A stretch of DNA of 64,000 nucleotides, from positions 32,001-96,000 of the IMG/VR virus record IMGVR_UViG_3300028591_000094; one strand, given 5' to 3'. This document shows positions 14,596 to 32,599 of this stretch, piece by piece. The notes beneath the pieces are model-generated. The model had not been told where the DNA came from, ran no database searches, and saw only the letters and a program-made list of their open reading frames with translations. The position numbers and the translations under genes are program-made. The first letter of the stretch is position 1. Each line of letters starts with the position of its first letter. The DNA comes from a virus. Lineage: Duplodnaviria; Caudoviricetes.

Positions 14596-16242
14596 TTAAA
14601 CATAATCAAAAGTGTTCATTACACCTTTATTACATTCACCACTTGCTTTCTTCTGCAAGTCTCTTCGGAACGATAGCAATACCTCTTTTACTTTCTCACG
14701 CTTGATACGCTTCGGTTCAAAAGATTTGTTATCACGTTGTTTTAAGAGTTTCTGCTGCAACACGGTTACAGCCACTCTGTTCCTTATATTAATCGCCGCA
14801 TTAACGTCGGCGTTGTCTTCATGCCCACATTCGATACATTCAAACGTTTCCTGATTCGGTCTATTCTCATCTTCTATACACCCACACACGGGGCACATCT
14901 TCGACGTATAACTCGCTTGGACTGTGGATACGGCGATATTGTACTTCCTCGCAATGTGTTCCACTTCATCTTTCAATGAACTGATGCTCAAGGCTCGGAC
15001 AATGCGATTGTAGTTAAGGTCATCGTTTACCTTGTCCTTGATGTACGAGCGACCGAACTGACCGTTTAGGTCTTCCATCACTATATGGTTCACTCCCTGT
15101 TCGGACAACTCCTTGCACATCGTCGCAATGGTTTGTTTCTCAATCTCGAGTATCTTGTGTGATATGATGTCTATCTTCTTCTGTCTACGTTTCGACGGCT
15201 TCCAATCACGACCGTATTGTTTCTTCAAAGTGTCCATACACTTGGATACCTCTGCATAAGCCTTGAGCAAGTCGCGGTCGTAATCATATGTGAGAGCACT
15301 AGAGAGCGTGAACATGTTGTGCTTGACATTCACATCGATACCCACGATATTGCTACCTGCCTCAGGAATGTATCTGTCCTGTTTCTTCGTGAGGATTACG
15401 ACCACCTGTTTCTTCCTCTCGTTGAATACTACGGTATATTCATAATCAGGATTCGATTTCTCATAGTCATGGATGCTTCCGTGATAGTCCTTGTTGAACT
15501 TGACTGGTATGTCAAAGGATTTTCTGCCGAGGCTGCTCAACGATACGAATGCGTTGATTACAGACCCGAAACGAGAGTTATAATCTATTATCAGTTTCTT
15601 ACGACTCCTGCCACGGAATGTGAGGGACTTGAATTCAATCGGATGTTCGGTGTACTTTTTGTAGGTGCGTTCCCTCCTTGACAGTGCAAGCGAATAAAGT
15701 CTATCGAATCCGAACTTCTCTATCTCACCGAGGATTGTCTTGTAGAACATCTGTTTCTTCTTGTCCGCCTTCGGCATTTGTTCGTTGATGTAGTCAATGA
15801 TTCCTTCATTACCGTATCTCGCGAGATATGAAAGTGTGATTGTGAGCGATGAGGACGTTTTGGTGTTTCTCACCTTCTTGAAGTCGCCTTTCTTATTCTT
15901 TTTGGTGTCGCGTTTGTACAGTTCACAACAGACGTAGTGGATGTTTTCGAATGTCAGTTTATGTTTAACGTTCTCGAATTTATTTTGGTAGGTGACGATA
16001 ACATCTTCGTAACACTGTTTGTCGAATGACGACGGCAGTTCTGAATATTTAGCCCGCATTTCCTTGAGGAAATCGAAGGTTGAAACGTCGAGGTAGTCAA
16101 ACAAGTGCTCACAGACGAATTGGGATATAACGTTCTTGTGTTCGCGGATTTTGACAGCAATATCAAGCAGTTCACCGTACTTCTGTGCAGTGAGGTTGTT
16201 CGAGACGAACCTTTTGCTGTATATGCTGTCGTGCTTAATCAT
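14596..16242 (-). CDS. tnpB: Large (548 aa) TnpB/Cas12f-like RNA-guided nuclease
   Basis: RuvC GIDVN, MEDLN, NADVNAAINI; zinc finger CPVCG/CIECG. Confidence 0.85.
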   Translation of the reverse strand: MIKHDSIYSKRFVSNNLTAQKYGELLDIAVKIREHKNVISQFVCEHLFDYLDVSTFDFLKEMRAKYSELPSSFDKQCYEDVIVTYQNKFENVKHKLTFENIHYVCCELYKRDTKKNKKGDFKKVRNTKTSSSLTITLSYLARYGNEGIIDYINEQMPKADKKKQMFYKTILGEIEKFGFDRLYSLALSRRERTYKKYTEHPIEFKSLTFRGRSRKKLIIDYNSRFGSVINAFVSLSSLGRKSFDIPVKFNKDYHGSIHDYEKSNPDYEYTVVFNERKKQVVVILTKKQDRYIPEAGSNIVGIDVNVKHNMFTLSSALTYDYDRDLLKAYAEVSKCMDTLKKQYGRDWKPSKRRQKKIDIISHKILEIEKQTIATMCKELSEQGVNHIVMEDLNGQFGRSYIKDKVNDDLNYNRIVRALSISSLKDEVEHIARKYNIAVSTVQASYTSKMCPVCGCIEDENRPNQETFECIECGHEDNADVNAAINIRNRVAVTVLQQKLLKQRDNKSFEPKRIKREKVKEVLLSFRRDLQKKASGECNKGVMNTFDYV

Positions 16243-16357
16243 TCGATAAAAAAAAGAGGTTTGATTCGGAGTTGCAAAATGTGGAAGCTGGCAACAGGGA
16301 ATTAACCTCAATATGTCTACTTTGATAGGCTTCCACCTCTATCATAATATAAATATC
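16243..16357 (-). promoter_or_regulatory. TATTTAT promoter plus kissing-loop leader RNA (copy 1)
   Basis: GTGGAAGC/GCTTCCAC loop-loop complementarity; homologous to 20443..20568. Confidence 0.7.
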
Positions 16358-18822: not shown

Positions 18823-18867
18823 GATAGTATTGTTTTTGATTGAAAATAATAATTGAATTCAGATTTG

Positions 18868-18939
18868 CAGAGGCGGCAAGACTTGAACTCACAACTTTAG
18901 TTTTGGAGACTAACATGTTACCAATTACACCACACCTCT
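18868..18939 (-). tRNA. tRNA-Trp(CCA)
   Basis: TTAGT-CTCCAAA-ACTAA. Confidence 0.92.
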
Positions 18940-19031
18940 ATATCCACCATTCATCATATTCGAACGGTGGCAATGTCACCTAAACTCTATTGTTTCACCT
19001 TTATGTCGGAAGCAAAGGGAGCCGACACGCG

Positions 19032-19120
19032 AGGAGAGAGCGGGACTCGAACCCGCGCCCCAGGTTACCCCGAAGAATTGATTAGCAATCAACCGCAGTA
19101 CCAACTATGCTTACCTCTCC
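19032..19120 (-). tRNA. tRNA-Ser(GCU)
   Basis: GTTGA-TTGCTAA-TCAAT, long variable arm. Confidence 0.9.
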
Positions 19121-19185
19121 GTAGCAAAAGACCTATAAGTTCTTGCCTATAAGACTTTCGATTTCTTGGTACCGTATAGAAAAAT

Positions 19186-20442
19186 CTAATAAAAACTGGA
19201 ATTATTAGTTTTTCCTTCTTGCTTCAACGAATCACTGCTTTTTAGGTTTGTTACCAAACGGTCATCCACAGTTGGGTTCTCCGCAAGCGTAAATTCGGTG
19301 TTACGGACACCTATTGTTCTTATTCCTTCATTCAAGATGTTGATTGCAGCATTCACATCCCTGTCGTGATGCTCGCCGCAAATCGGACAAACCCATTCAC
19401 GGTCGCTCAAAACCAAGTCCTTCTTGATGTAACCGCACTTGTGGCAGGTCTTGCTGCTCGGATAGAAACGGTCAACCAAGACAACCTTCTTGCCGTTTAG
19501 TTCCGCTTTGTCGGTCAGAACTTGTCTGAACCGATACAATCCGATTTCTTGTATCGCCTTTGAAAGTTTATGGTTCTTCAACATTCCTCTGACATTCAAA
19601 TCCTCCATACAAACCAAGTCGTAATCTTTAAGCAGGCAATTCACGACATAGTAGATGTATGCTTCCTTTTGGTTAGTCAATCGTTCAAACGCCTTCGCAA
19701 TTCTGACACGTTGTTTCTCTCGGTTGTGTGAACCTTTGACTTTCCTTGACAGTTGCTTCTGCAACCTCTTGACTTTTTGCTCTTGCTTTTTGAAGAAGTG
19801 CCTGTTATCAAAGACCTCACCGTCACTTGTAATCACAAAGTCCTTCACTCCGAGGTCTATACCAACGCATTGTTTAGTGTGTTTGAATTTGATAAGTTCA
19901 TCCTGCGGTATGTCAACAAGGATTGAAAGGAAGTAGTTGCCGCTCTTGGTTCTCGAAACGGTAGCACTCCTTATGCAATCTTTGTAGTCTTGAAGTCTCT
20001 CGTAATACAAGTCCGAACATCTAAACTTGATGTCCTTGAGGTCTTGAGTTAAAGTTATTTTTCTTTCATTGAATGTGTTGCGCTTTGAAATCGCTTCTGA
20101 CGGAAACAGTGCCGACTGCTTGTCCTTCTTTGACTTGAACTTCGGGAATCCGTTGTGCTGCTTGAAGAACTTTGAATAAGCGTCAAGCATTTGACGGATT
20201 GACTGTTTCATCACCTTTGTGTTCTGTTCTTGCAACCAAGCATAGTTCTCGTCTTTCAATAATGTTCCGTGAAACCACTTGGAAATGTCAGTTAGTTTAA
20301 GATTGGTCTTATCCTCGTCATAGGCATTGCGCTTGAATTCAAGGGTCTTGTTATACACAAAGCGGTAGCATCCAAGTACCTTGTCAAGTCTTGTCTGCTG
20401 TTCCTTGTTCGGATATAACCTTACCTTGATTCCTCGCAACAT
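19186..20442 (-). CDS. tnpB: TnpB RNA-guided endonuclease
   Basis: N-terminal HTH, GIDLG, MEDLN, PSSKTCHKCG, DRDVNAAINI. Confidence 0.95.
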   Translation of the reverse strand: MLRGIKVRLYPNKEQQTRLDKVLGCYRFVYNKTLEFKRNAYDEDKTNLKLTDISKWFHGTLLKDENYAWLQEQNTKVMKQSIRQMLDAYSKFFKQHNGFPKFKSKKDKQSALFPSEAISKRNTFNERKITLTQDLKDIKFRCSDLYYERLQDYKDCIRSATVSRTKSGNYFLSILVDIPQDELIKFKHTKQCVGIDLGVKDFVITSDGEVFDNRHFFKKQEQKVKRLQKQLSRKVKGSHNREKQRVRIAKAFERLTNQKEAYIYYVVNCLLKDYDLVCMEDLNVRGMLKNHKLSKAIQEIGLYRFRQVLTDKAELNGKKVVLVDRFYPSSKTCHKCGYIKKDLVLSDREWVCPICGEHHDRDVNAAINILNEGIRTIGVRNTEFTLAENPTVDDRLVTNLKSSDSLKQEGKTNNSSFY

Positions 20443-20568
20443 ATCAATAAAAAAGAGGCATTAAACTTGCGGTTAAAAATGTGGACAGAACCGACAAGGA
20501 TAAAACCTCTATATATCTTATGTTATTTAGAAACGACTGTCCACTTTCGTTTCTTTATTTATAAATAG
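20443..20568 (-). promoter_or_regulatory. TATTTAT promoter plus kissing-loop leader RNA (copy 2)
   Basis: GTGGACAG/CTGTCCAC loop-loop complementarity. Confidence 0.7.
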
Positions 20569-20649
20569 TCTGAAACTACAATATATTTATACGAGTTAGT
20601 TTTTATCAGTTTTTCATAGATTTTATTAGATTTTCAAGGAACTGTTATG

Positions 20650-20720
20650 TACCCCCATAGGGACTCGAACCCCAATTCTGGGTTTAGAAGACCCATGTCC
20701 TTCCGTTGAACGATAGGGGC
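20650..20720 (-). tRNA. tRNA-Arg(UCU)
   Basis: TGGGT-CTTCTAA-ACCCA. Confidence 0.92.
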
Positions 20721-20739
20721 GTTAACCGCACTATTGATG

Positions 20740-20810
20740 AGCTTGGTCTTGGAGTCGAACCAAGTCAGACAGTTTTGCAGACTGTTGCCACGCCGCATGG
20801 CTTACCAAGC
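20740..20810 (-). tRNA. tRNA-Cys(GCA)
   Basis: ACAGT-CTGCAAA-ACTGT, U73. Confidence 0.9.
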
Positions 20811-20824
20811 AGAATTTTTTTTTG

Positions 20825-20879
20825 AACCCCAAGTCGGAGTCGAACCGACACACTTCGCGAAGTCACCTCCCGTTGGGGC
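20825..20879 (-). ncRNA. Minimal tRNA-like RNA (acceptor plus T arm)
   Basis: GCCCCAA/TTGGGGT and GTCGG-TTCGACT-CCGAC. Confidence 0.6.
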
Positions 20880-21146
20880 TGTTGATTGGGGTTTCATAGT
20901 AAAAAAAAACCGAGTAATTTGACGAGCTACGGACTGAGGAAACGACGGCTGGATACGTCGATTGCATTACCGTTTACGGTTTTACCCTCTGTTGCGTTGC
21001 ATTCATATAGCACCTCACGGTAACCAACACCTTTCACAGAACTGACGAAACATTGTAGAATCGGTCTCACCAATGCAAATACCGCGAATCTCGCAAAGGC
21101 TTACTTCTGTTCTACTCGGTGGTCTGTACTCGGTCTTTATGCGTCG

Positions 21147-21226
21147 TGCCCCTGGCAGGACTTGAACCTGCACGCCTTTCGGCACTTGCTCCTAAGGCAA
21201 GCGTGTCTGCATTCCACCACAGGGGC
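21147..21226 (-). tRNA. tRNA-Leu(UAG)
   Basis: CTTGC-CTTAGGA-GCAAG. Confidence 0.92.
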
Positions 21227-21232
21227 ATATAG

Positions 21233-21306
21233 AGCCCCGTGCTGGACTTGAACCAGCGACCTGCTGTTTACGAGACAGCCGCTCTAGCCAGCTGAGCTAA
21301 CGGGGC
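21233..21306 (-). tRNA. tRNA-Thr(CGU)
   Basis: GCTGT-CTCGTAA-ACAGC. Confidence 0.93.
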
Positions 21307-21483
21307 GTTTGCCAGCGGCTTGTTTCCAGACAGATTTTGACGCGGCGCAGACTTAACGTCTTTTCTTGATTGTGGTCTCAACCATAGCCAGTTGTTTCAC
21401 ACGGGCTCTTACCGTATCGGATAGCGTTTAACCACTCCGTCGCTCCTCGGTACTTAGCGTCTGACGGTTCTATCTGTTGTGCC

Positions 21484-21835
21484 GTACACAGAAACTTATG
21501 AAAACTTGTGATTTTCATCAGTTTCCGCTTCCTGCTTCGACGAGCCGCCGCTTCTTAGGCACGTCTCCGTGCGTTCGTCCACGGTTGGGTTCTCCACAGG
21601 CGTGAATTCGGGTCTACGGAACCCTATTATTCTTTCACCTTCCATAAGGATATTAATCGCAGCATTCAAATCCCTATCGTGATGTTCACCACACACGGGG
21701 CAAGTCCACTCACGTTCGCCAAGGGTCAATCCCTTGTAGACATAGCCGCACTTATGGCAGGTCTTGGAACTGGCGTACCACCTGTCCACCTCCACGATTT
21801 CCTTTCCATTCAGGGAAGCCTTGTCCATGAGCACG
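21484..21835 (-). pseudogene. tnpB: tnpB 3' remnant with element right end
   Basis: SSKTCHKCG..CPVCG..DRDLNAAINI..EFTPVENPTVD, similar to 19186..20442. Confidence 0.88.
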
Positions 21836-21903
21836 GACTTGAACCTGCACGCCTTTCGGCACTTGCTCCTAAGGCAAGCGTGTCTGCATTCCACCACAAG
21901 GGC
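21835..21903 (-). pseudogene. Truncated duplicate tRNA-Leu(UAG) fused to the tnpB remnant
   Basis: Near-identical to 21147..21226 up to GGTTCAAGTCC, then tnpB sequence. Confidence 0.85.
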
Positions 21904-21931
21904 AATTCGGTTTTTGTTTGTTTATGTATTG

Positions 21932-22005
21932 GGTGGCAGGTCAGGCTCGAACTGACGACCTACGGAACCACAATCCGCCGCTCTGCCATCTGAGCTACAA
22001 CCACC
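21932..22005 (-). tRNA. tRNA-His(GUG) with encoded G-1
   Basis: GCGGA-TTGTGGT-TCCGT, C73. Confidence 0.92.
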
Positions 22006-22047
22006 ATGTAAAAAAATGCCCCTGTTTTCCGACTCAAGCAGCATTCG

Positions 22048-22118
22048 TAGCCCATCGGGGACTCGAACCCCGCTCCAATGGCTGAGAACCATTCGTTCTA
22101 CCTCTAAACTAAAGGGCT
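22048..22118 (-). tRNA. tRNA-Glu(CUC)
   Basis: AATGG-TTCTCAG-CCATT. Confidence 0.88.
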
Positions 22119-22333
22119 ATGGTCAGGAGACGGTTTCACAGGCTCTTTCCCGTACCTCCCTACACCTACGTAGGGCGCTCGATTGTGTTACTTGGAGTAG
22201 TCAGTCGGTATTGTACGCGTCCATCACCAACCTCTATGACCTTTCGCTTCGGGTTTCCACAATTACTTTCATTTGAGCGTCCTCTCATTACTGGCACTTG
22301 TTTCAGCCGCATCCTGTTTGTGAGCTATCTCGC

Positions 22334-22420
22334 TGGTGGTCCCTCTGGGATTCGAACCCAGGACCCCCTCCTTAAAAGGGAGGTGCTCTCGCTTACGCTA
22401 ACCAACTGAGCTAAGGGACC
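22334..22420 (-). tRNA. tRNA-Lys(UUU) with expanded D loop and encoded CCA
   Basis: CCTCC-CTTTTAA-GGAGG; D loop AGTTGGTTAGCGTAAGCGA. Confidence 0.9.
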
Positions 22421-22582
22421 AATTCAGTGGATTTTGTTTAACGTATGCAAGGCTCCACTCAAGCACCCACGGGCGGGTTCCTATCTTTTGCGGCTTGTCC
22501 GCCAGCCGTCGTACTGGGCATCCTGACTTTCAGCACGCTTTGCCTCCGTTTTTACCCTTTGCGGACGGTATCAGTACGGCAG

Positions 22583-22666
22583 TGTCTCCGAGAGGATTTG
22601 AACCTCCATGGGGTTTCCCCCACCAGCCCCTCAAGCTGGCGCGCCTACCAGTTTCGCCACGAAGAC
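22583..22666 (-). tRNA. tRNA-Leu(GAG)
   Basis: CCAGC-TTGAGGG-GCTGG. Confidence 0.92.
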
Positions 22667-22829
22667 ATATTAAAAATGAAAAATAAACCGCACCCAAGAT
22701 GTTGCTCGACCAACCTTCTTGAAATTTCCCTTATCCGCATTCAAATCTCACGTGCGACTGAACTTGTTACGGTTGCTGAACGCGCCCTTTTTCGAGAGGG
22801 CTCATGGCCGTTGTGGCTTATTTTCATTG

Positions 22830-22902
22830 TGTTCCCGCCTGGGCTCGAACCAGGGACTTTCTGGATGTAAGCCAGATACTCTACCGACTGAGTTACAGGA
22901 AC
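22830..22902 (-). tRNA. tRNA-Val(UAC)
   Basis: TCTGG-CTTACAT-CCAGA. Confidence 0.93.
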
Positions 22903-22952
22903 AACGGGGTGACTATAGCCTATCCAGCGTCACCAATACTGGGTAGGTTTTG

Positions 22953-23025
22953 AGCACCGTGTGAGAGTCGAACTCACCATAACCTGCTTGGAAGGCAGGA
23001 ACCTTAGCCGCTCGGCCTACGATGC
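22953..23025 (-). tRNA. tRNA-Gly(UCC)
   Basis: CCTGC-CTTCCAA-GCAGG, U73. Confidence 0.9.
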
Positions 23026-23037
23026 GTTGGTTGTTTG

Positions 23038-23204
23038 TGTGCCTGGGAGGACTCGAACCTCCATTGACTGCATGCACCAAGTCTTGCTTTCTGAAATGCA
23101 TCGTCCTACTTTCGTCTCATAAGTCTTCATAAGACTCCGTAGCCGTCTTTCACGGCGTCTCCCACTATAGGGCGCAGGTATCCCAAATTCCCCGTCACAA
23201 ACAC
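23038..23204 (-). ncRNA. tRNA-like RNA with a large multi-hairpin insert replacing the anticodon arm
   Basis: Perfect T arm GGAGG-TTCGAGT-CCTCC followed by CAGGCAC-A; tentative partner GTGTTTG. Confidence 0.5.
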
Positions 23205-23366
23205 AACTTGGCGGATTGTCAGGCGTCTCGATTACCGCCATTATCTCAGTACGTCCCTGACTGACGTTCACGCCTACACGCCACATGGCATGACATTCTG
23301 GTGTACATATACTTGTCTCACAAATCGTGAGACAGGGTGTTCAGAAAAACCATAGGAATATTCACT

Positions 23367-23972
23367 TTAGTAATATTTTTTTCTGCCCCTACGACCTGAT
23401 TTGTTATGAGATTTATAATTATCTGTAAGTGAATGGCAGTTAGGGCACAGTACTTGAAGGTTATCTAAATTATTATTTGTATAATTACCATCAATATGAT
23501 GTATTTCAAGCGGAATTGTTTGTGTATATTCGTTCCGTTCACCCCATCCACATTTTTCACATTTATAATGGCTTTTTTTCAACAGATATTTTCTAATAAA
23601 ATGTGACAAATTATATTCGCCACTTAAACCGTTGCATTCTCCATTCAGCCACAGTTCCACGTGTTTTTGCTGTCTATACTCACCAGAACATTTCGTTGAA
23701 CAAAATTTATTGGTTGAACTATAGGAATGTTCAAATTCACACCCACAATTCAAGCAAACATGTTTCACCTTTTCTTTTATCGTTTTACCTTTATTAAAAT
23801 GTTCGTTGGGATTTATTTGGCGTTTATTTTTTAACTCAATACCCAACTTTTTACATGCTTTTTTTATTGTGTTAGAGCTTACACCATAATTGCGCCCGAT
23901 TTCACAATATGATACGTTTTCTTGAATCATCTTTTCAAGATTTTCCTTTTCGTTAGACCAATTAATCTTCAT
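23367..23972 (-). CDS. HNH homing endonuclease (free-standing) with N-terminal HTH
   Basis: CEKCG, LEIHHIDGN..NN..NLQVLCPNCH. Confidence 0.92.
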   Translation of the reverse strand: MKINWSNEKENLEKMIQENVSYCEIGRNYGVSSNTIKKACKKLGIELKNKRQINPNEHFNKGKTIKEKVKHVCLNCGCEFEHSYSSTNKFCSTKCSGEYRQQKHVELWLNGECNGLSGEYNLSHFIRKYLLKKSHYKCEKCGWGERNEYTQTIPLEIHHIDGNYTNNNLDNLQVLCPNCHSLTDNYKSHNKSGRRGRKKYY

Positions 23973-24029
23973 TTGAATTATAGTTTTATTATAAATATTT
24001 AATAAAACAATAATTCGTTTTTTTTTTCG

Positions 24030-24112
24030 AGCCAAGGACAAGATTCGAACTTGCGCGGACTTTCGTCACTGGGTTACAAAACCAGTACATTCAACCACTC
24101 TGTCACCTTGGC
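24030..24112 (-). tRNA. tRNA-Thr(UGU) with long variable arm
   Basis: CTGGT-TTTGTAA-CCCAG; V arm GAC-GAAA-GTC; U73. Confidence 0.78.
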
Positions 24113-24117
24113 AAAAT

Positions 24118-24473
24118 AACGGTTTTTCTCAGTCATTATAACCATATTGAAATTCTTGCAAGCCTCATTCCGATTAACTGGCTGCCCATTTACTGTTTTT
24201 ACAATCTTATGGACACGTATATGAGTTATAATTCCAATTTAGGCTGCAGGTTTGTGTATGCGTTTATGAGAACTTGAACATCGATTGGAACGCGCGTGTC
24301 TAGTTCAGTAATCTCAATTTAGCTCGGCGTTGTCCTTACACATTATTGGTTAGTGTTGAGAAGTTACTCCGACTAATGTCATTGTTTATCTTATCTATCA
24401 CCTATAAAATAGGACTTCTCTTTTAAAAGGACTTTCACCGAATTAGCCCGCTTCTACTGTTGAAAAAACCGTT
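24118..24473 (-). ncRNA. Free-standing group I intron-derived RNA scaffold
   Basis: 24-nt and 22-nt blocks identical to the 6098..6618 intron; covarying P3; closed by AACGGTTTTTTCA/TGAGAAAAACCGTT. Confidence 0.75.
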
Positions 24474-24476
24474 TTG

Positions 24477-24594
24477 TGTGACAAGGAGGATTCGAACCTC
24501 CACCGTGACCACTTCTTTCGGCGTGCCCGCCTACTTCCAGACTCGAACTGGGGACCAGATGCCTCTGTGCGTTTACCTATTTCGCCATTGTCAC
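24477..24594 (-). ncRNA. tRNA-like RNA with two T-loops and no anticodon loop
   Basis: GTGACAA/TTGTCAC, Leu-type D arm, CCAG-TTCGAGT-CTGG plus GGAGG-TTCGAAT-CCTCC. Confidence 0.72.
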
Positions 24595-24604
24595 ATTGTT
24601 TTTG

Positions 24605-24678
24605 TCGGCACGGGTGGAGTTGGACCACCGACCTCGACATTATCAGTGTCGCGCTCTAACCAACTGAGCTACGTGCCG
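24605..24678 (-). tRNA. tRNA-Ile(GAU)
   Basis: CGACA-CTGATAA-TGTCG. Confidence 0.92.
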
Positions 24679-25054
24679 ATTGTGTGGTTTCAACTTTATA
24701 TAAAAAGAGAATTAAACTTTGGAAGATTTCCGTGGTCACTTCCATCCGAGACCTTCTGACACTATTTCCGCCAGACTAAAGCGTACCAAATCTCGTTATC
24801 GCTGTTTTGTGCCCTTCCTTTCTTCAACCGTGTTGATGTTCTAGCGCCAGTGGTTTATTAGGGCCATCCGTACTCGTTTTTCACCCTTTCGGGCTTCTCT
24901 TACTATCCTTTTCGCAATCCTCCATTAAGGCACATTCTCAGTGCCACCACATTACTATGGCTGAGTTCACTCCCTTAAACCAACATCAACTTTAGAAGAA
25001 GTATGCTATAGGCACACCCACCTAGAAAGTATGTTCTCTTTATTATTGTCAATA

Positions 25055-25120
25055 CAGGAGACAAAATCAGGTGTTTCAAATTAAAAGTTTGAGCCTAAAG
25101 TTTTTTGCTGTACGTCTCCT
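25055..25120 (-). ncRNA. ACAGCAA-motif RNA, copy A
   Basis: AGGAGAC-GTACAGCAA...GTCTCCT-G. Confidence 0.7.
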
Positions 25121-25131
25121 ATTATATTATG

Positions 25132-25205
25132 TCACGTAGGTGGGATTCGAACCCACGGTCACCAGACTGAAAATCTGGGGTCCTAGACCACTAGACGACT
25201 ACGCG
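25132..25205 (-). tRNA. tRNA-Glu(UUC)
   Basis: CCAGA-TTTTCAG-TCTGG. Confidence 0.92.
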
Positions 25206-25321
25206 ATTTTGGTTTTTTCCTTTTGTCCTCCTTGCAGGCTTGTTTAACGCGCGCTGCCCAAGGTTGGTTGCTGAACTAGGTTGGAAATTACCTCCTAAAT
25301 CAATCCCTACAGCTTTTCACG

Positions 25322-25394
25322 TGGAGCCTAGCGGATTCGAACCGCTGACATTTTGCTTGCAAAGCAAACGCTCTACCAGCTGAGCTAAGGCCCC
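25322..25394 (-). tRNA. tRNA-Ala(UGC)
   Basis: TTTGC-TTTGCAA-GCAAA; G3:U70. Confidence 0.94.
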
Positions 25395-25399
25395 AAACT

Positions 25400-25463
25400 C
25401 AGGAGACCCAAAAAACCGATAACCAATTAATTGTTTTGTAATGATAATTGCTGTACGTCTCCC
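25400..25463 (-). ncRNA. ACAGCAA-motif RNA, copy B
   Basis: GGGAGAC-GTACAGCAA...GTCTCCT-G. Confidence 0.7.
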
Positions 25464-25482
25464 TTAATAAATGTTTTTTTTG

Positions 25483-25560
25483 TTACCCCAATCGGTTTCG
25501 AACCGATACTCCCTGACTGATGCATCCGCGCAGGTGGTCTACCATTTAACCTACGGAGTT
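25483..25560 (-). ncRNA. tRNA-like RNA with aberrant anticodon arm
   Basis: Normal D and T arms; CCTG-(15 nt)-CAGG in place of the anticodon arm. Confidence 0.62.
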
Positions 25561-25803
25561 ACCTTCACACCATACCGACGTCTTTACACACCTCTTGAAC
25601 GAGGAAGTATGATACTAATTGCGCAATGTAGTTTTTTATGCTATAAACTTATCGCCTGTTTAGAATATCTTTCTTTCGATGTGGTAGATTGTAATATTTA
25701 CACCATTTACGAATTGTATTATCACACACCCCAAACATTTTACCTATTTGCCGAAACGGTTTATTTCGAACCCATAACCAAAAAAATAAGTCTAATAACC
25801 TAG

Positions 25804-25892
25804 TAGCACGTATGGGATTCGAACCCATGAGGGACTTTTACATCCCAACCACATTGAAAGTGTGGCGACCTGGACCGCTAGTCGAACGCGCC
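25804..25892 (-). tRNA. tRNA-Glu(UUC) with long variable arm
   Basis: CCACA-CTTTCAA-TGTGG; V arm GGGAT-GTAAAA-GTCCC. Confidence 0.85.
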
Positions 25893-25949
25893 ATGACTGC
25901 CGCGGTTTTGTTAAACCAGACCCGCGGAGAACCTTATACTGGTTTTGTG

Positions 25950-26023
25950 TCGGGCATGCCTGACTCGAACAGGCGACCTCTGCATCCCAAATGCAGCGTT
26001 CTAGCCAACTGAACTAATACCCG
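25950..26023 (-). tRNA. tRNA-Pro(UGG)
   Basis: CTGCA-TTTGGGA-TGCAG. Confidence 0.93.
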
Positions 26024-26153
26024 TTAAAACAGATATATACTTATGACGCCTCGTCATCCTATGTACCCCACGACCAAACTAAACGCGTCCGCCAGCGCCA
26101 GAGCTGGACTTAATGGTCTCCGATACAAGCGAATGTATCTGTTTTTGTATCTG

Positions 26154-26321
26154 TGCTGGAGGCGGGATTCGAACCCACATTCACGGCTTGTACTTCGCCA
26201 CCTGTGCTTATTTACGTCCGCGCTTGAACCATCGGATGTACTTACCGACTATCGCGACGCTACAATTATTCGGCACCTCCCCAACCCAATGGGGCGACTT
26301 TGCCAGTTTGTCCACACCAGC
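26154..26321 (-). ncRNA. tRNA-like RNA with a 6-nt anticodon loop and about 100-nt variable-region insert
   Basis: GCTGGTG/CTCCAGC, GAC/GTC D arm, CCCCA-TTGGGT-TGGGG, T arm GTGGG-TTCGAAT-CCCGC. Confidence 0.7.
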
Positions 26322-26761
26322 ATTTATAATGGCTACGCATGACCCAGGTAGCAACGGGACTTCAGCTATTAACGACTAGAAGTTTGCAACGTCCTTCCAT
26401 AAAGGTTCGTGACCGACGCTTTCACGTTGACCGCTTGTATTGGTTATTGTGTCGTGGCAGGGAAACATCCCAACATCAGCTTACTAACGCCTCTCCGCCA
26501 CACCCCTCTCTCGTGTAAGTGTAATGTCTTTATCGCTTCGGGATTGTCTTGCATCGCTCCTCTTTGCACTATAATAAAACGGTTTGGAGTTCTTCCGTAA
26601 CAGACCTGTCTAGTATTCCGCCAAAATCGGGGCGGTGCTTCTCTTTCAAGGAGTGCTTGTCTGTCATTCCGCACTTCCCCATCCCGTGGGGAGACCTTTA
26701 CATCGGGTGCCTATCATTTCAGCATGGAGCAGCCAGTGCTCAACCCAGTTTGAGAAGCTTG

Positions 26762-26835
26762 CTCCCCAGGCAGGACTCGAACCTGCGACCCCCTGATTAA
26801 CAGTCAGGTGCTCTAACCAACTGAGCTACTGAGGA
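26762..26835 (-). tRNA. tRNA-Asn(GUU)
   Basis: CCTGA-CTGTTAA-TCAGG. Confidence 0.94.
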
Positions 26836-27112
26836 TTGTATTCAAAACGTTTTGTTTTACCTGCTTAGCGAAAAACGTTAATCGTTTTGGTAAAACAATC
26901 TAAATTAATAATCAAAATAAATTACACTTTAAAGCATTTATTTAAGGGCTTGGATTGCATTTTATCCCTCGTTCAGCGTCGGGGTAGCTACTTCCCCATA
27001 GTGCCTGTCCAATCGATTTCTATGGTCTTATCGTTCGGCCTCCTGTTGCGCTCAGGTGCTTCTCTCGGTGGTTTTTTATGCGCGCTACCACCGTTATGTA
27101 TTGTGTAACTTG

Positions 27113-27930
27113 TAGCGGGAGAGGGACTCGAACCCCCGACCTCAAGGTTATAACATTAATACTCCATTATCATATTCCCAATGGTGGTTAGGGCACAATC
27201 CTATGAGATTGCTAATAGAGTTTATCACGCTTACTGGTGTACAATCATCAAATTCAGAAACTGCTTTTATGTGAGCAACCTCAACATGATTTTTGTAACC
27301 GCAAATATGACAACTTGGATTTTCTGTGTTTTCAAAAAATACTTTTCTAGCATCTTTCTGTATTGCAGAACGAGCGGATTGCCAATTTTTCCTATTTTTG
27401 AACAACTCACCCTTCGTTTTGTTGTGAACATCATCAGTAACTGTAAGTTGTAGTTCCATACCTAACTTCGAACATCTTTCAGTTATTGCTTTTTTGGTGT
27501 TACTTGCAAGACATTTACACTTGTAACCAAGTTTTTTACCAATTTCTACCCAAGTTTTCGATGATTTTATAATATCAATGAACTCTTCATCACTTGGTGC
27601 GTTAACGAATGAAAACGTCTCAGTTTTCTTGTGTGAAAAATTTTCAATTTCGTTAATTTTTCTTCTTTGCGGTAACTTGATACCTAGTCGTTTTGCTCTT
27701 TTTTTTACAGCATTACCACTAATACCAAGTATTTTACCAATAGCGGAATAACTTTCATTCTGCTCTAAAATCATCTTTTTCAAAAATTCTTCTTCATTCA
27801 TAACAACTCTTTATTATAAATAGTTGTTACTTTTAAAAACGAACCTTCTTATTAAGAATAATCTTAGTTCGAATGGGTTTCGGCTTTTAAACCGTAAGAG
27901 CCTTGCGAGCTACCACTGCTCCATCCCGCA
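27113..27930 (-). tRNA. tRNA-fMet(CAU) split in the anticodon by a 746-nt HNH insertion (halves 27898..27930 and 27113..27151)
   Basis: CAAGGCTC joined to ATAACCTTG restores an initiator-type tRNA with a 1:72 mismatch. Confidence 0.85.
27148..27801 (-). CDS. HNH endonuclease inside tRNA-fMet
   Basis: CHICG, VEVAHIK, N..NLIGLCPNHHWEYD; N-terminal HTH. Confidence 0.92.
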   Translation of the reverse strand: MNEEEFLKKMILEQNESYSAIGKILGISGNAVKKRAKRLGIKLPQRRKINEIENFSHKKTETFSFVNAPSDEEFIDIIKSSKTWVEIGKKLGYKCKCLASNTKKAITERCSKLGMELQLTVTDDVHNKTKGELFKNRKNWQSARSAIQKDARKVFFENTENPSCHICGYKNHVEVAHIKAVSEFDDCTPVSVINSISNLIGLCPNHHWEYDNGVLML

Positions 27931-28197
27931 ATATATCTAATTATTTATTTTTTATCTAAAAAAACTTGTTGGTCATACTACCTAACTTACTACTGTGTCT
28001 ACAATCATTATACGCTGATTGAGAAGTTGGGAATTTAACCCATTCTTTCACCCAAGCATTCATTGGGCTTTATCAGTGCAACAAGTATTAGAATTTAACG
28101 TTTGTACGCTATGGGCGTGAACCTTTCCCATATTAAACTGTTTTTTCCAGTGGGTCACTTGGAACACAGCTGACGATTCATTTATAACAAACGTTAG

Positions 28198-28280
28198 TGG
28201 GTAGGGGAGGATTCGAACCTCCGAACCCGAAAGGGAGCGGATTTACAGTCCGCCGCGTTTAGCCACTTCGCTACCTACCC
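28198..28280 (-). tRNA. tRNA-Tyr(GUA)
   Basis: GCGGA-CTGTAAA-TCCGC. Confidence 0.94.
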
Positions 28281-28370
28281 AGATTGGGCCTGGCTTTCAC
28301 AGGCCCTGTTTTTTTGAAGTCTTTACTGTCCGCTACATCCTCTAAACATCAGAAACAAGTATGTGTAAAA

Positions 28371-28907
28371 TCAAATTTCTCCTTTTTGTTCGAGGAATCT
28401 GAGTATCACTTCCTCCGCATTGAATGAAAACTTGTCGTTGTCCATATGAACGCTTCTGTCGATTGTGATATTGTTGTCCTCAATCATCTTGAGTATATCG
28501 AGATGCACTTTCCTGGCCTCTTCCTCGGTCTGGTAGCGCCCTTCCTGTTGATACGGGAAATTGCGTTCCAGAACGAAATTGATGTTGTAGAATGAGTTGA
28601 ACGCCGACATCACAAGCTCCTTGAAATTCGGGATATTCTCCCTGTCGTAGTAGTAGCAGAACGGAAGCGGACTGTCTGTTATGACGTAATCCACTTTATC
28701 GCGCAACCGCCAGAGCTTGTGGTACATCTTACCGAAGATGTAGATTTGCTCCCCCAACTCCTTGTTTCGCTCGGTCCAAACAAGGTCCTTCGCGAACTCG
28801 GTTATCATTTCAACGTTCAGTCCGCACCTTTTCATAAGGGCGAACAATGCTGCTGCCGTGGTTGATTTTCCGCAACCAGGGCCAGCGAATAGATTAATGA
28901 CTTTCAT
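28371..28907 (-). CDS. P-loop ATPase/kinase (AAA_28, NadR-like)
   Basis: GPGCGKST Walker A, ITDSP, GRYQ. Confidence 0.85.
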   Translation of the reverse strand: MKVINLFAGPGCGKSTTAAALFALMKRCGLNVEMITEFAKDLVWTERNKELGEQIYIFGKMYHKLWRLRDKVDYVITDSPLPFCYYYDRENIPNFKELVMSAFNSFYNINFVLERNFPYQQEGRYQTEEEARKVHLDILKMIEDNNITIDRSVHMDNDKFSFNAEEVILRFLEQKGEI

Positions 28908-28924
28908 GTTGTGTGAAATTTTTG

Positions 28925-28998
28925 TGGAGTCGACTTGACTTGAACAAGTGCCTGCGGATTTTCAGTCCGCCGTGACAAACCCTCTACACCACAACTCC
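28925..28998 (-). tRNA. tRNA-Phe(GAA)
   Basis: GCGGA-CTGAAAA-TCCGC. Confidence 0.9.
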
Positions 28999-29018
28999 AA
29001 TAGCGGTACTTTTTTTAG

Positions 29019-29090
29019 AACTACGGACGGGACTCGAACCCGCATCTGCCCCCCGATAAGGGGGCCGTCCTACCATTAAACGACCGTACT
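29019..29090 (-). ncRNA. tRNA-like RNA with an 8-nt anticodon loop (CTTATCGG)
   Basis: Cloverleaf with GCCCC/GGGGC stem and a G2:G71 mismatch. Confidence 0.65.
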
Positions 29091-29190
29091 TATCCCCACC
29101 ACATTCCACATCGGCTGTCGTTACCAACCGAAGGTTCAATGTCGAGAACGACCCTTGCCCGCTTAACGACTGCGGGTTCAGGAAATTTAG

Positions 29191-29264
29191 CGGTACGTAT
29201 GGGACTCGAACCCATGACCTCCGCCGTGACAGGGCGGCATTCTAGCCAGCTGAACTAACGCACC
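29191..29264 (-). tRNA. tRNA-Asp(GUC)
   Basis: CCGCC-CTGTCAC-GGCGG. Confidence 0.95.
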
Positions 29265-29274
29265 GAATTTTTTG

Positions 29275-29360
29275 TTGGCGGAGAGGGACTTGAACCCCCA
29301 GGGCCCGTTAAGGCAACAGATTTACAGTCTGTCCCGCTACCAATTACGGTCTATCCACCA
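29275..29360 (-). tRNA. tRNA-Tyr(GUA), second atypical copy
   Basis: ACAGA-CTGTAAA-TCTGT; extra nucleotides between acceptor and D stems. Confidence 0.82.
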
Positions 29361-29367
29361 AGATAAA

Positions 29368-29449
29368 CAGAAGACTAAATTTTCCACCACTTTCCTTTTG
29401 TAGAAATTTTTTTGTTTTCGTAGAAAGGAGTGTTTGCTGTATGTCTTCC
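29368..29449 (-). ncRNA. ACAGCAA-motif RNA, copy C
   Basis: GGAAGAC-ATACAGCAA...GTCTTCT-G. Confidence 0.7.
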
Positions 29450-29587
29450 ATAACAAGGTCGTCCAAAAGCCGTATCTTTCACCGCTCGGTGTATGCCGTC
29501 ATTGACGGTCCGAAAAAAGTGGAGGTGATAAGCAGGTGGAAAAGAACAACCTGGTTTTATTAGTTATTTCATTATTGTTAAATCGGG

Positions 29588-29671
29588 CGGAGACGGAGGG
29601 ACTCGAACCCCCACCCCTTTACGGAGAATGGTTTTCAGGACCACGGCAGTACCAATTATGCTTACGTCTCC
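29588..29671 (-). tRNA. tRNA-Ser(UGA)
   Basis: GTGGT-CCTGAAA-ACCAT, long variable arm, G73. Confidence 0.9.
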
Positions 29672-29679
29672 GATAATAA

Positions 29680-29765
29680 CAAAAGCCAGGGCAGGTTTAA
29701 ATTACCGCGGGTTTAATCATTAATTGTGATTACCTTTTTGTGTTTTTGTTTGCTGTACGGCTTTC
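29680..29765 (-). ncRNA. ACAGCAA-motif RNA, copy D
   Basis: GAAAGCC-GTACAGCAA...GGCTTTT-G. Confidence 0.68.
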
Positions 29766-29844
29766 ATGTGTGTCCCCTGAAAAATCCTTTTGGGTTTATT
29801 TATTCCCCCATAACGGCGTCTAAACCTCAGGGACGTGCCTGTTG

Positions 29845-29917
29845 AGCGGAAGACGAGACTCGAACTCGCAACCCCCTGACTGGCAGTCAGGTGCTCTACC
29901 AATTGAGCTACTTCCGC
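29845..29917 (-). tRNA. tRNA-Gly(GCC)
   Basis: CCTGA-CTGCCAG-TCAGG. Confidence 0.94.
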
Positions 29918-30001
29918 GGATTCCGACAACAATGCAAAAGCGTTTCCGCTTATGCGCGCAGTTGTCGGTTTCGGTTTTTCCTATTTGAATTTTTTACCAA
30001 G

Positions 30002-30056
30002 ATGTCAAAGAACTCCGTTCACTTTATGTTCACCCTCACAGATATTAATATACGAT
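30002..30056 (-). promoter_or_regulatory. tRNA array leader: class I promoter, TGTGAGGGTGA and boxA
   Basis: CGTATATTA..TGTGAGGGTGA..AGTTCTTTGACAT, as at about 7.5 kb. Confidence 0.75.
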
Positions 30057-30127
30057 TTTTTTGTCTGCTATATCACTTTTTCATAATTTTTTTTTCTCTT
30101 TTGTGTTTTTTGTCCCTTTCGACACTT

Positions 30128-30157
30128 ATATAACGCAAGCGAACCTGTTTTTTGTAC
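30128..30157 (-). promoter_or_regulatory. Class II promoter motif
   Basis: Identical 30-mer to 8551..8580. Confidence 0.8.
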
Positions 30158-30187
30158 GACCCTTGAAAAATTTTTTTTATATCCCTT

Positions 30188-30225
30188 AAAAAACAAAGGC
30201 TCAACTTTCTTTCGAACGTCAAGCC
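30188..30225 (-). terminator. Intrinsic terminator (candidate attenuator)
   Basis: GGCTTGAC/GTTGAGCC stem followed by TTTGTTTTTT. Confidence 0.75.
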
Positions 30226-30270
30226 AGTGGGAATATATGTTGGGTTGAAACTGTCAGTCCTGTATTGACG

Positions 30271-30363
30271 TTACATAATATAGTGCCATGCGTAATCGGG
30301 TTCATCATTAAAGAGTGAAATCTCGATTCCGCAGACTGGTTTACTATATGTATGTAGTGCCAT
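30271..30363 (-). CDS. Candidate attenuator leader peptide MALHTYSKPVCGIEISLFNDEPDYAWHYIM
   Basis: ATG in A-rich context after a TATTTAT promoter; stop codon overlaps the antiterminator arm. Confidence 0.7.
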   Translation of the reverse strand: MALHTYSKPVCGIEISLFNDEPDYAWHYIM

Positions 30364-30445
30364 TTGTTTTCAGGGCGTTTTATATAATAATAAATATATG
30401 GTAGAATTTCAAAATTACCAAAAAAGATTAAAAAAGTTGAAAAAA

Positions 30446-32599
30446 TTATAAATTTTCCAGTTCGCTGTCGGTGCAGAGGTAGTCTCCGAAGTCCATTTTC
30501 TCCAAGACGTCATCCATTGGCTCGTGCTCATATATCACATGTTCGCTCGGCTGGTAGTAGTAGTCAGTGCCGTTGTATTTGACCCATGACAGTCCGTTTT
30601 CATCGACGTCGCTACACATATCGAACCAAACGGGCGATGCAAAGTTCTTTCTGCCCTCTGGCGCCTTGATTAGGTTGTATTTTCCATCCGAGCGGCGTTT
30701 AACCAGCATGTATCCGTTGATGACGCGGTATGAATCTATGATTGACTGGAGCTGGTGTCTCCAATCGTTGTTTCCGCTGTCGTTGTTTGGCATGGTCGGC
30801 ACATAGTCGCGATAGTTGCCGCCGATGAAAGCCAGCGGGTCGTGACGGTTGTATGTTCTGTCCCACAGTTGGTCGTCGATATCAACCTTATGCCAAGTGT
30901 CGTTTGGATTCGCCAGGTTCTTATATGATATAGGTATTATAGTTCCGTCGTCGGTTGTAAGCACGGCGTTATGGTCAACATTTCCGTCATATAGAAATCC
31001 CTTCACGCCCGCAGCATGCACTGCATGGTCAGCTCTGCCTCCGATACCTCTGTCTGAACCCAACGGAGCGTTGACAAGAGCGTCGAGCAGTCTTCTGATT
31101 ACCTGGCTGCCAGACCGTCTTCCTATGTCCAGAAGTCCGCGGAGTGTTCCGTCAGCCGCCCATCTTTTGTACTGTTCGGGGAAGAATCTCTGTATCTGTT
31201 CTTCGTATGTTCCCTGTATGCCATATTTTTCAGCCATCCAGGGGTGGGGTGTTATGTATCCATTCGCCACTATATTCTTTGGGGTCGCGTAGCACCATAC
31301 AGTATCGCCGTATACTCTCGGCGTGTTAATCTTGTATTGACAGCCGTATGTACCCGAGCCTAGAAAGTCCGAGTTGTCGTTTCCAGTGCCCCTGAATTCC
31401 TTTGTAAAGCCGTTTTTGGCAATGCTTTCCGTCTGTTTGGACGGAGCCAGGCGGTAGAAGTAGAAGAATTTGCTGTCCTCGTTCGGGTTGTAATCGACCT
31501 CGTCTTTCTCAACGTCTGGGACATATTCATCGATGCCTTCCTTCAGCTGTCTGGATTTTGATTCCGCGATGTTCTGTTGTTTCAATTCCTCTGGTGTGCA
31601 GAGATAGTCCCCGAAGTCCAACTTTTCCTCCAACTCGACTGGGTCGGTAGTGTATTCGTATATGACGTTTTCCGATGGCTGGTAATAATAATAGGTGCCC
31701 TTGTATTTTACAATAGCGAGTCCGTTTTTGTCAACGTCGCTGCACAGGTCGAACCACACTGGCGAAGCGGGTTGTTTTGTCTTCGGGTTGACCAGGTTGT
31801 AGCCTTTGCTGGATTGGACGAGGAAATAGCCGTTCACGCAACGCAGGTTCTCGGCTGACGTGACTTTGTTCGGGCTGTGCGGGTCGGACATAAAATAATT
31901 CTTAAATTCCTTTCCGAACGCCACACTGGGCTCATAAGTATTCGCCGTGACATCCACCGTATCCTGTGTCGCCAGCGGAATCCAAGTGCGCCCGTCGTCC
32001 TTGGTGTATTGATATGGTATGACCCGTTTGAAATCCTTCCACAATCCCCAGTCTCCGCCGTTGTTCCAAAACAGACCGTCGATATCGTAGTGGTGAAATA
32101 TGCTATCGTCAATCTGGCTCCAGTTGCGAACCAGTCCAGCACAACTGCCGTATCTTTTGAGTTTCTGGGCATCGCGCGGGTCTTTCACTAGTTTGTCCAC
32201 CTGTTGCTCAAAGGACAGACTGCCGTGAGCCATTTTTGCCAAATCGTTTGTGAATGTGGCTCTGACGCCTTGGTCAATCAAACATCTGTCGAAACCAGGA
32301 ACCACTATTTTCATGATAACGTCACCGTAACTTGAAGCCATACCAGGGTCTAATTCCCCTTCCAGGGTGGTTGTACAATACAAACCAAACCCATAGACAT
32401 GCGCCCCGTTGCTTCCGATGAACTCCCTGGATACACCAGTTTTCTTTATTGCGTCAATGTTGCGGCTCCACGTCCTGGAATATATTACGAACGATTTATT
32501 GTCTTTTGCGAATCCATGTAAATCGTCAAGGGTGTTGATTCCTTCAATATATTCTTCAACACCCTCGTTGATTATCCTATTGCAACTGTCTGGAAACAT
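30446..32599 (-). CDS. Internally duplicated protein: two copies of an ART/PARP-like domain plus WG-like repeat; probable virion-internal protein
   Basis: I..(T/N)G...EF.G..G.G.Y..YGD in both halves; near-identical ASPVWFD.CSDVD.NGL..YYYQPSE..DFGDYLCT tails. Confidence 0.65.
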   Translation of the reverse strand: MFPDSCNRIINEGVEEYIEGINTLDDLHGFAKDNKSFVIYSRTWSRNIDAIKKTGVSREFIGSNGAHVYGFGLYCTTTLEGELDPGMASSYGDVIMKIVVPGFDRCLIDQGVRATFTNDLAKMAHGSLSFEQQVDKLVKDPRDAQKLKRYGSCAGLVRNWSQIDDSIFHHYDIDGLFWNNGGDWGLWKDFKRVIPYQYTKDDGRTWIPLATQDTVDVTANTYEPSVAFGKEFKNYFMSDPHSPNKVTSAENLRCVNGYFLVQSSKGYNLVNPKTKQPASPVWFDLCSDVDKNGLAIVKYKGTYYYYQPSENVIYEYTTDPVELEEKLDFGDYLCTPEELKQQNIAESKSRQLKEGIDEYVPDVEKDEVDYNPNEDSKFFYFYRLAPSKQTESIAKNGFTKEFRGTGNDNSDFLGSGTYGCQYKINTPRVYGDTVWCYATPKNIVANGYITPHPWMAEKYGIQGTYEEQIQRFFPEQYKRWAADGTLRGLLDIGRRSGSQVIRRLLDALVNAPLGSDRGIGGRADHAVHAAGVKGFLYDGNVDHNAVLTTDDGTIIPISYKNLANPNDTWHKVDIDDQLWDRTYNRHDPLAFIGGNYRDYVPTMPNNDSGNNDWRHQLQSIIDSYRVINGYMLVKRRSDGKYNLIKAPEGRKNFASPVWFDMCSDVDENGLSWVKYNGTDYYYQPSEHVIYEHEPMDDVLEKMDFGDYLCTDSELENL

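Follow-up and report, generated by a model that had tools for sequence, protein, structure and literature searches.

A candidate ribosome-dependent attenuator at the head of the main tRNA array of a giant phage

Results

A compact leader unit upstream of the main tRNA array

The stretch of DNA analysed here (the window) comprises 64,000 nucleotides, corresponding to bases 32001-96000 of the 168-kb IMG/VR virus record IMGVR_UViG_3300028591_000094 (Duplodnaviria; Caudoviricetes), and its minus strand holds nearly all of its genes and every transfer RNA (tRNA) gene. Upstream of the main tRNA array, on the same strand, lies a compact leader unit composed of a promoter-like element, a 30-codon open reading frame (ORF), a spacer, and a hairpin followed by a T tract (Table 1). 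Region 2, a short strand that overlaps the stop codon of the ORF, is exactly complementary to region 3, a segment spanning the 5' arm and the start of the loop of this hairpin, and we propose the unit as a candidate transcription attenuator. CheckV estimates the completeness of the record at ~45%, indicating that the 168 kb are a fragment of a very large phage; the phage carrying the leader unit is a giant one, from the gut or rumen. Its host is probably a member of the Bacteroidota, as judged from the Bacteroidota-type promoter-like elements present in relatives and from A-rich gene starts without a Shine-Dalgarno sequence.

Table 1. Features of the leader unit, the tRNA genes and their promoter-like elements in the window, with column identities in the alignment of 13 related sequences.
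Feature	Position in window	Strand	Column identity (13-sequence alignment)	Remarks
Promoter-like element: TTGAAA, 17 nucleotides, TATTAT / TATTTAT (30396-30390)	30390..30412	-		TATTTAT and TTTTGAAA box kept in relatives
Leader ORF, 30 codons and TAA	30271..30363	-		18 amino acid types; A-rich start context typical of the phage's genes
Start-codon region			0.99	
Long imperfect hairpin within the ORF, leader RNA nucleotides 8-92	30272..30356	-		Possible pause or timing structure
Arms of in-ORF stem P1			0.85-0.86	
P1 loop			0.53	
Region 2, predicted antiterminator strand AACGTCAA	30265..30272	-	0.90	Overlaps the TAA stop; exact complement of TTGACGTT (30222-30215)
Columns either side of region 2			0.52 and 0.55	
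Core of the nearly invariant spacer between stop and terminator, predicted unpaired	30229..30242	-		Alignment columns 138-176
Predicted terminator hairpin: 8 bp, G.A mismatch, 3 bp, GAAA loop	30198..30225	-		5' arm and loop start (30222-30215) form region 3
Terminator arms (both)			0.99	
Terminator loop			0.51	Length also variable
T/U tract, 9 of 10 T	30188..30197	-		Completes an intrinsic-terminator-like site
Recurrent phage promoter-like motif (GTACAAAAAAC, ~10 nucleotides, TGCGTTATATA)	30127..30157	-		Downstream of the terminator
Host-like (Bacteroidota-type) promoter (30056-30045) and boxA-like GTTCTTTGACAT (30013-30002)	30002..30056	-		Heads the tRNA transcript
Main tRNA array	18867..29917	-		24 distinct anticodons; first is tRNA-Gly(GCC) at 29917-29844; HNH, kinase-like and transposase ORFs interspersed
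Second, small tRNA cluster	7439-5914	-		

An initial annotation, made from the letters of the window alone, had listed a TATTTAT promoter, the 30-codon ORF, a terminator and a U tract; all four lie on the minus strand where it had placed them, and the hairpin is fuller than it described. The promoter motif is not confined to this locus: many ATG starts of the coding strand are preceded, at a distance of 20-35 nucleotides, by TATTTAT(A/T)(A/T) (for example at window positions 64168, 62845, 60828 and 34859), which represents a second promoter-like class that recalls the late promoter of T4, TATAAATA. The 178-nucleotide leader RNA has a minimum free energy (MFE) of -45.3 kcal/mol and is more structured than its shuffles (z = -4.2), the terminator hairpin alone having a predicted free energy of -12.1 kcal/mol. 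The complementarity between the strand overlapping the stop codon and the terminator, also put forward in the initial annotation, is exact in the sequence; an 8-nucleotide Watson-Crick complement of the 5' half of the terminator would occur by chance somewhere in the 134 nucleotides upstream with P = 0.019. A second possible partner of region 2 in the window is the start-codon region, through UGGC and GUCA. Assignment of the hairpin to a repeated terminator family was rejected, as it is unique within this genome, and Rfam searches across 29920-30450 (at the gathering threshold, and with E-values up to 1) assigned no family to the leader RNA.

The unit is conserved in 13 relatives

Relatives were found through homologues of the 717-residue protein encoded upstream of the leader (window 30446-32599), which share 38-63% identity with it, and by a pattern search for the hairpin. 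This protein is an internal duplication, both halves of which end in a similar YYYQPSE...DFGDYLCT motif, and it matched no Pfam or PHROG family. A DNA search with the leader region against GenBank phages returned tRNA matches only and no close relative, and a search of viral contigs for the 717-residue neighbour and an exact 32-mer gave no match. One contig, L024, stops at the gene for the 717-residue homologue.

The leader unit was recovered from 13 distinct relatives (L003, L004, L007, L009, L011, L012, L015, L017, L019, L020, L021, L025 and L026). In every one of these contigs the unit precedes a tRNA array of the same orientation and is flanked by a homologue of the 717-residue protein with only 38-51% identity. 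Its components are the TTTTGAAA and TATTTAT motifs, an ORF of 39-42 codons starting with ATG, a spacer that hardly varies, the hairpin, a T tract and promoter-like elements. Codon-diverse upstream ORFs combined with alternative terminator and antiterminator pairings ahead of the tRNA arrays of related phages, which the initial annotation had predicted, are thus found in 13 cases. The arrays of the relatives usually start with Gly, Ser, Tyr, Met, Asn and Ala.

Conservation is concentrated in the RNA elements, and the stretches between them are variable (Table 1). The spacer is predicted to be unpaired, and 15 of its 39 columns are invariant. The terminator hairpins of the relatives have predicted free energies of -11 to -13 kcal/mol and are followed by 8-10 T.

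Region 2 is kept in two reading frames and can pair with the terminator arm

In the relatives, region 2 (AACGTCAAG, 9 nucleotides) can base-pair along its length with the terminator's 5' arm. Its frame is AAC GTC AAG in most of them and xAA CGT CAx in L021 and in the window, where the same nucleotides are one position out of frame and encode different residues or a stop. The retention of these nucleotides in two reading frames argues that it is the nucleic acid, not the peptide, that is constrained here. Within the 9-bp core formed by regions 2 and 3, standard pairs occupy 115 of the 117 cells across the 13 relatives, and of the 23 cells that deviate from the commonest pair, 21 hold G.U wobbles. 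The sole change in the terminator arm, an A to G in L025, gives a wobble compatible with both helices.

When the RNA was folded as a nascent transcript ending just short of the terminator's 3' arm, region 2 paired with region 3 over 8-11 bp in the MFE structure of all 12 sequences examined. In the full-length RNA, terminator and antiterminator have near-equal energies, the antiterminator being the MFE fold in three relatives, and in the consensus fold UGACG of the start-codon region forms 5 bp with CGUCA of region 2, a helix that is weaker in the window. The predicted layout is that of classical attenuators, with 1:2, 2:3 and 3:4 pairings, of which 1:2 is weak. A further stem of the relatives, P1, lies within the ORF and joins the codons for NLQS to the codons for DCGF, third codon positions being opposite one another. 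Covariation is seen in this stem: both partners change in six pairs (one of which, for example, is found as G-C, G.U and A-U), and its covariation score was reached by only 1 of 500 shuffles; P1 differs from the long in-ORF hairpin of the window.

The position of the stop codon follows region 2: its distance beyond that strand is 12 nucleotides in 12 relatives and 4 nucleotides in L021, and in the window the two overlap. With the stop 0-12 nucleotides past region 2, a terminating ribosome would be expected to mask all of it or its 3' part, despite the differences in frame.

The ORF is open throughout, and its product is weakly constrained

The leader ORF is open in all 14 sequences, with 30-42 codons, and the other two frames hold 1-6 stops, except that the window has no stop in its +1 frame. 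The ratio of nonsynonymous to synonymous polymorphism (pN/pS) of the peptide is 0.5-0.8; of the variable columns, 21, 24 and 29 fall at the first, second and third codon positions, respectively. The leader peptides are hydrophilic, rich in Lys and Asn, and devoid of a hydrophobic stretch; a Pfam search with the leader peptide matched no family, and its low-confidence AlphaFold model (predicted local distance difference test score, pLDDT, of 54) has no secondary structure. This profile fits an ORF that must be translatable and whose product need not fold, and it suits a leader peptide better than a functional small protein. We also considered the messenger RNA of a type I toxin or small membrane peptide, and rejected it given a hydrophilic peptide with no hydrophobic stretch and no helix in the model.

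The ORF ends in TAA in the window and in TAG in nine of the 13 relatives. A tRNA with anticodon CTA, of the amber suppressor type, is present in the arrays of three relatives (L009, 8860-8944; L022, G001; L023, G002); none was found in the window.

Codon diversity of the leader and coverage of the array

According to the initial annotation, the leader of the window contains 18 of the 20 amino acid types and its first 14 residues are all different. Both statements hold (chance P = 0.03 and P = 0.001, respectively). Anticodons of the array were called by ARAGORN with relaxed settings and by Rfam, which reproduced the 24 distinct anticodons counted earlier. As had been claimed, the leader matches 20 of these and leaves Arg UCU, Thr CGU, Gly GCC and Val UAC unmatched, and the codons CAA, CAG, TTA and TTG are absent from it. 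We compared this overlap, for which a statistical test had been proposed, with that of 7166 random 30-codon windows of the ORFs of this phage: at least 20 matched anticodons are obtained with P = 0.0033.

Leaders of the relatives contain 18-20 of the 20 amino acid types in 39-42 residues, against a background mean of 16.4 (P = 0.011-0.23 per sequence). Diversity exceeds the background mean in all 14 sequences, and does so also within the part of the ORF where a stall leaves region 2 free. Long stretches of the array were retrieved for two relatives. The leader of L012 matches all 21 anticodons found, a value equalled by none of 2362 random windows (P below 0.0004), and that of L011 matches 15 of 18 (P = 0.055). 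The sequences used in these tests of diversity and coverage share ancestry, and many rare residues occupy columns fixed by RNA structure. For these two reasons we regard the diversity of the leader as real but moderately significant, compatible with a sensor of the tRNA pool and no proof of one. Selection on amino acid composition beyond the conserved columns was judged not demonstrable with few related sequences.

The tRNA array and its own promoters

The two further promoters that the initial annotation had placed downstream of the terminator are seen as promoter-like elements at 30157-30127 and 30056-30045. The first, the GTACAAAAAAC/TGCGTTATATA motif, is present in 15 full copies on the minus strand of the 168-kb record, all upstream of genes, is positioned 25-50 nucleotides upstream of many gene starts, and appears to be a distinct class of phage promoter. 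The second, a host-like promoter paired with a boxA-like GTTCTTTGACAT, also heads the second tRNA cluster (boxA-like element at 7479-7468) and is present in relatives, including L002, L003 and L025. The boxA-like element resembles the antitermination boxA of ribosomal RNA operons, a resemblance that suggests, by analogy, that phage tRNA arrays may recruit the processive antitermination machinery of the host.

Several genes of the array region have unusual structures. One tRNA (window 27112-27930) is split in its anticodon loop by a 746-nucleotide insert encoding an HNH endonuclease-like ORF, and tRNA-like genes with oversized or odd arms lie at 22334-22420, 24477-24594, 26153-26321 and 29018-29090. 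Two transposase-like ORFs (phrog_506) lie inside and just beyond the array (19186-20442, E = 3e-116; 14596-16311, E = 1e-31). Elsewhere in the window, at 50411-52303, a 630-residue DnaK/Hsp70-like protein is encoded, with 57-63% identity to those of published huge phages (480-735 kb) and ~50% to those of Lak phages.

Terminators next to tRNA genes have also been recorded in phiCbK, three of whose tRNA blocks are immediately preceded by rho-independent terminators in the annotation of its depositors. The product of phiCbK gp083 (45 residues) precedes the terminator before a Pro-Pro-Lys-Lys-Leu-Leu-Leu-Ser-Ser block, and Ser, Leu, Pro and Lys make up 23 of its 45 residues.

Discussion

A model for attenuation of the main tRNA array

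We favour the interpretation of the unit as a cis-acting, ribosome-dependent transcription attenuator heading the main tRNA array, and give it about an even chance of being correct. What the sequences show directly is the set of elements described above, together with its conservation, alternative pairings and geometry; we infer that the ORF would be translated, that transcription would end at the hairpin, that the outcome would depend on the ribosome, and that a physiological signal would act through it. A TATTTAT-type phage promoter would start a short, highly structured leader RNA carrying the 30-codon ORF (39-42 codons in the relatives). Region 2, the 8-9 nucleotides at the end of the ORF, would be able to pair with region 3 and so block the terminator hairpin 3:4. 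A ribosome that reaches the stop would cover region 2, the terminator would form, and the transcript would end ~170-200 nucleotides from its start. With the ribosome absent or stalled earlier, the 2:3 helix would form instead and RNA polymerase would read into the tRNA genes, adding to what the promoters of the array provide. This added read-through would presumably come from TATTTAT-class promoters. Since almost all amino acids are represented once or twice in the ORF, the trigger could be a shortage of any of many tRNAs, or their cleavage.

The leader might then be a general probe of the tRNA pool, in which the loss of almost any tRNA would stall a ribosome before region 2 and lead to late transcription of the array as a replacement set of tRNAs. 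We advance this possibility tentatively, and consider it plausible though less likely than not. The tRNAs could be lost through starvation, through host anticodon nucleases, or through the codon demand of the phage itself, and the combination of TAG-ending leaders with arrays containing a CTA tRNA raises the prospect that even a suppressor tRNA may be read out by the leader. Attenuation with general sensing of the tRNA pool was the central proposal of the initial annotation. Its anatomical part has gained comparative support from the two-frame retention of region 2, the position of the stop and the folds of the nascent RNA, while the sensing of the pool as a whole is moderately supported. The late timing and the role against anticodon nucleases that it assigned to the unit are, like translation and termination, to be taken as presumptive.

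A number of observations weigh against attenuation or against its link to the tRNA pool. Firstly, both the phage promoter-like motif and the host-like promoter with its boxA-like element sit between the terminator and the first tRNA, which would make the array independent of read-through; the latter could only add expression. In some relatives, the leader is separated from the first tRNA by an HNH-like gene. The second tRNA cluster was checked for a leader rich in Gln and Leu codons, and none was found, only the host-like promoter and boxA-like element. Moreover, L002, the closest relative for which DNA is available (51% identity in the 717-residue protein), has an identical hairpin 55 nucleotides after the upstream gene (5319-5400), without promoter, leader ORF or region 2, so that the hairpin can act as a plain terminator. 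A single tRNA was found within the ~1.7 kb of this contig downstream of the hairpin; in this single case, loss of the leader accompanies loss or relocation of the array.

Secondly, the pairing data have limited power. As computed from base composition, ~70% of random transitions in region 2 would keep pairing, and there are no compensatory double changes in the antiterminator, because the terminator arms are nearly invariant. A proof of the antiterminator by covariation is unobtainable for the same reason, and the pairing data stand as consistency, not proof.

Thirdly, the diversity statistics are modest for each sequence (P = 0.008-0.29) and the sequences are related by descent, and codon choice given the peptide shows a weak bias in the window (P = 0.08) and a weak signal in two relatives (P = 0.024 and 0.15). 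Finally, the model leaves three features unexplained: the ~25-nucleotide, nearly invariant spacer predicted to be unpaired, a conserved TAT-KCA-CCA-NNN-TGG segment in the leader ORF, and the consequence of TAG suppression, by which ribosomes would enter or pass the terminator in seven of the TAG-ending relatives.

Alternative explanations

The same anatomy could belong to a stand-alone small late gene, that is, a monocistronic unit whose hairpin insulates the array from transcription arriving from upstream and whose pairings serve the stability of the messenger RNA or the control of its own translation, for instance through sequestration of the start codon. Gene callers have annotated the small ORF in the metagenome assemblies of several relatives, its start context and its distance from TATTTAT are like those of other genes of the phage, the hairpin of L002 would work without a leader, and the array has promoters of its own. 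The peptide is difficult to reconcile with this view, being weakly constrained and having neither a predicted fold nor a known family. L021 and the window have a different C-terminus over preserved region 2 nucleotides, and conservation follows the RNA elements and not the codons. We therefore regard a small late gene as unlikely.

The unit could also be a trans-acting or dual-function small RNA (sRNA) of ~170-200 nucleotides, in which the nearly invariant spacer upstream of the terminator would serve as the seed, as in many Hfq-type sRNAs, and the terminated leader would target other transcripts. The predicted unpaired state of the spacer, its invariant columns, and the order of seed, terminator and U tail, correspond to the classic layout of such RNAs; the leader RNA is highly structured, and sRNAs derived from attenuators are known. 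However, the 168-kb fragment contains no convincing target for the spacer, the best candidate having two mismatches in 14 nucleotides, and this reading would leave unexplained both the open ORF and a stop that tracks region 2. An sRNA seems to us improbable, but it is compatible with an attenuator and does not exclude one.

Conservation of the hairpin and spacer far beyond the needs of base pairing, and the identity of the hairpin in L002 although region 2 is absent there, could also reflect binding by a protein. A phage or host RNA-binding protein would then pick between 2:3 and 3:4 through a site in the spacer, the G.A-containing hairpin or the CACCA segment, the ORF being incidental or secondary. 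Such a factor-dependent switch fails to explain why ORF and stop position are kept, no candidate protein or known RNA motif was identified for it, and we give it a slim chance. Lastly, the window-only statistics are modest (P = 0.003-0.03) and the unit was picked from 64 kb, but its presence in 13 relatives with the same anatomy and a covarying P1 makes it very unlikely, on these comparative data, that ORF, diversity and 8-nucleotide complementarity merely coincide beside an ordinary terminator.

Relationship to known attenuators

Ribosome-mediated attenuators are known from the trpL, hisL, leuL and pheL leaders and the multivalent thr and ilvGMEDA leaders of enterobacterial amino-acid operons. 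By analogy, the proposed attenuator would be closest in its working to these, and especially to the multivalent thr and ilv leaders. It shares with them, and with the trp/his type in general, a short promoter-proximal ORF, a predicted intrinsic terminator, a predicted antiterminator that shares a strand with the terminator and is exclusive with it, a 1:2 partner, and an ORF end placed such that a terminating ribosome would mask region 2. The enrichment in regulatory codons typical of the trp/his type was not found in the leaders, which contain no codon runs and instead 18-20 amino acid types, nearly all 20 amino acids occurring once or twice. The unit further differs from amino-acid-operon leaders in that phage tRNA genes and not biosynthetic enzymes would be controlled, that the 1:2 partner is the start-codon region with 4-5 bp, that promoters lie downstream of the terminator, and that the host is probably a member of the Bacteroidota.

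As with T-box riboswitches, tRNA status would decide between terminator and antiterminator in the leader of a set of RNA or translation-related genes; in contrast to them, sensing would be mediated by the ribosome and not by direct tRNA binding, and would not be specific to one tRNA. Identity with a T-box riboswitch itself was rejected, as the unit is without specifier loop or T-box motif and had no Rfam match across the interval searched. Leader-peptide attenuators inducible by drugs, such as erm, cat and mef/mel, are among the systems covered in a published account (PMC4335068). Read-through would likewise be induced here by a ribosome stalled on a short ORF, which would in effect make the leader a sensor of translation stress and not of a single amino acid. 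Those systems rely on a drug and on nascent-peptide arrest motifs, whereas the present peptide is poorly conserved and has no evident arrest motif. In the case of rnTrpL of Sinorhizobium, an attenuator-derived sRNA is described as acting in trans (PMC6614838). A terminated leader of the phage could similarly persist and act in trans, for which the unpaired spacer would be suited; unlike for rnTrpL, no target was found in the 168-kb fragment, and a trans function here is speculative.

Implications for phage tRNA arrays

Full-text literature searches returned no description of the attenuation of phage tRNA arrays. These arrays are usually discussed as helpers in codon usage or as spares against host defences that cleave tRNAs, and to our knowledge the control of their expression is essentially unknown. 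Feedback logic in which the ribosome does the measuring has been described for amino-acid and synthetase genes, but in the literature searched no description of it was found for tRNA genes. What would set the unit apart from known leader attenuators is the nature of the targets, phage tRNA genes, an ORF of maximal diversity, and the presence of independent promoters downstream. If the proposed attenuation is true, it would constitute a feedback loop in which, ahead of tRNA genes, the ribosome directly measures the class of product that they supply, decoding capacity. The leader would then be a compact natural sensor of general translation stress, and would provide a testable link between anticodon-nuclease defences and the counter-measures of phages.

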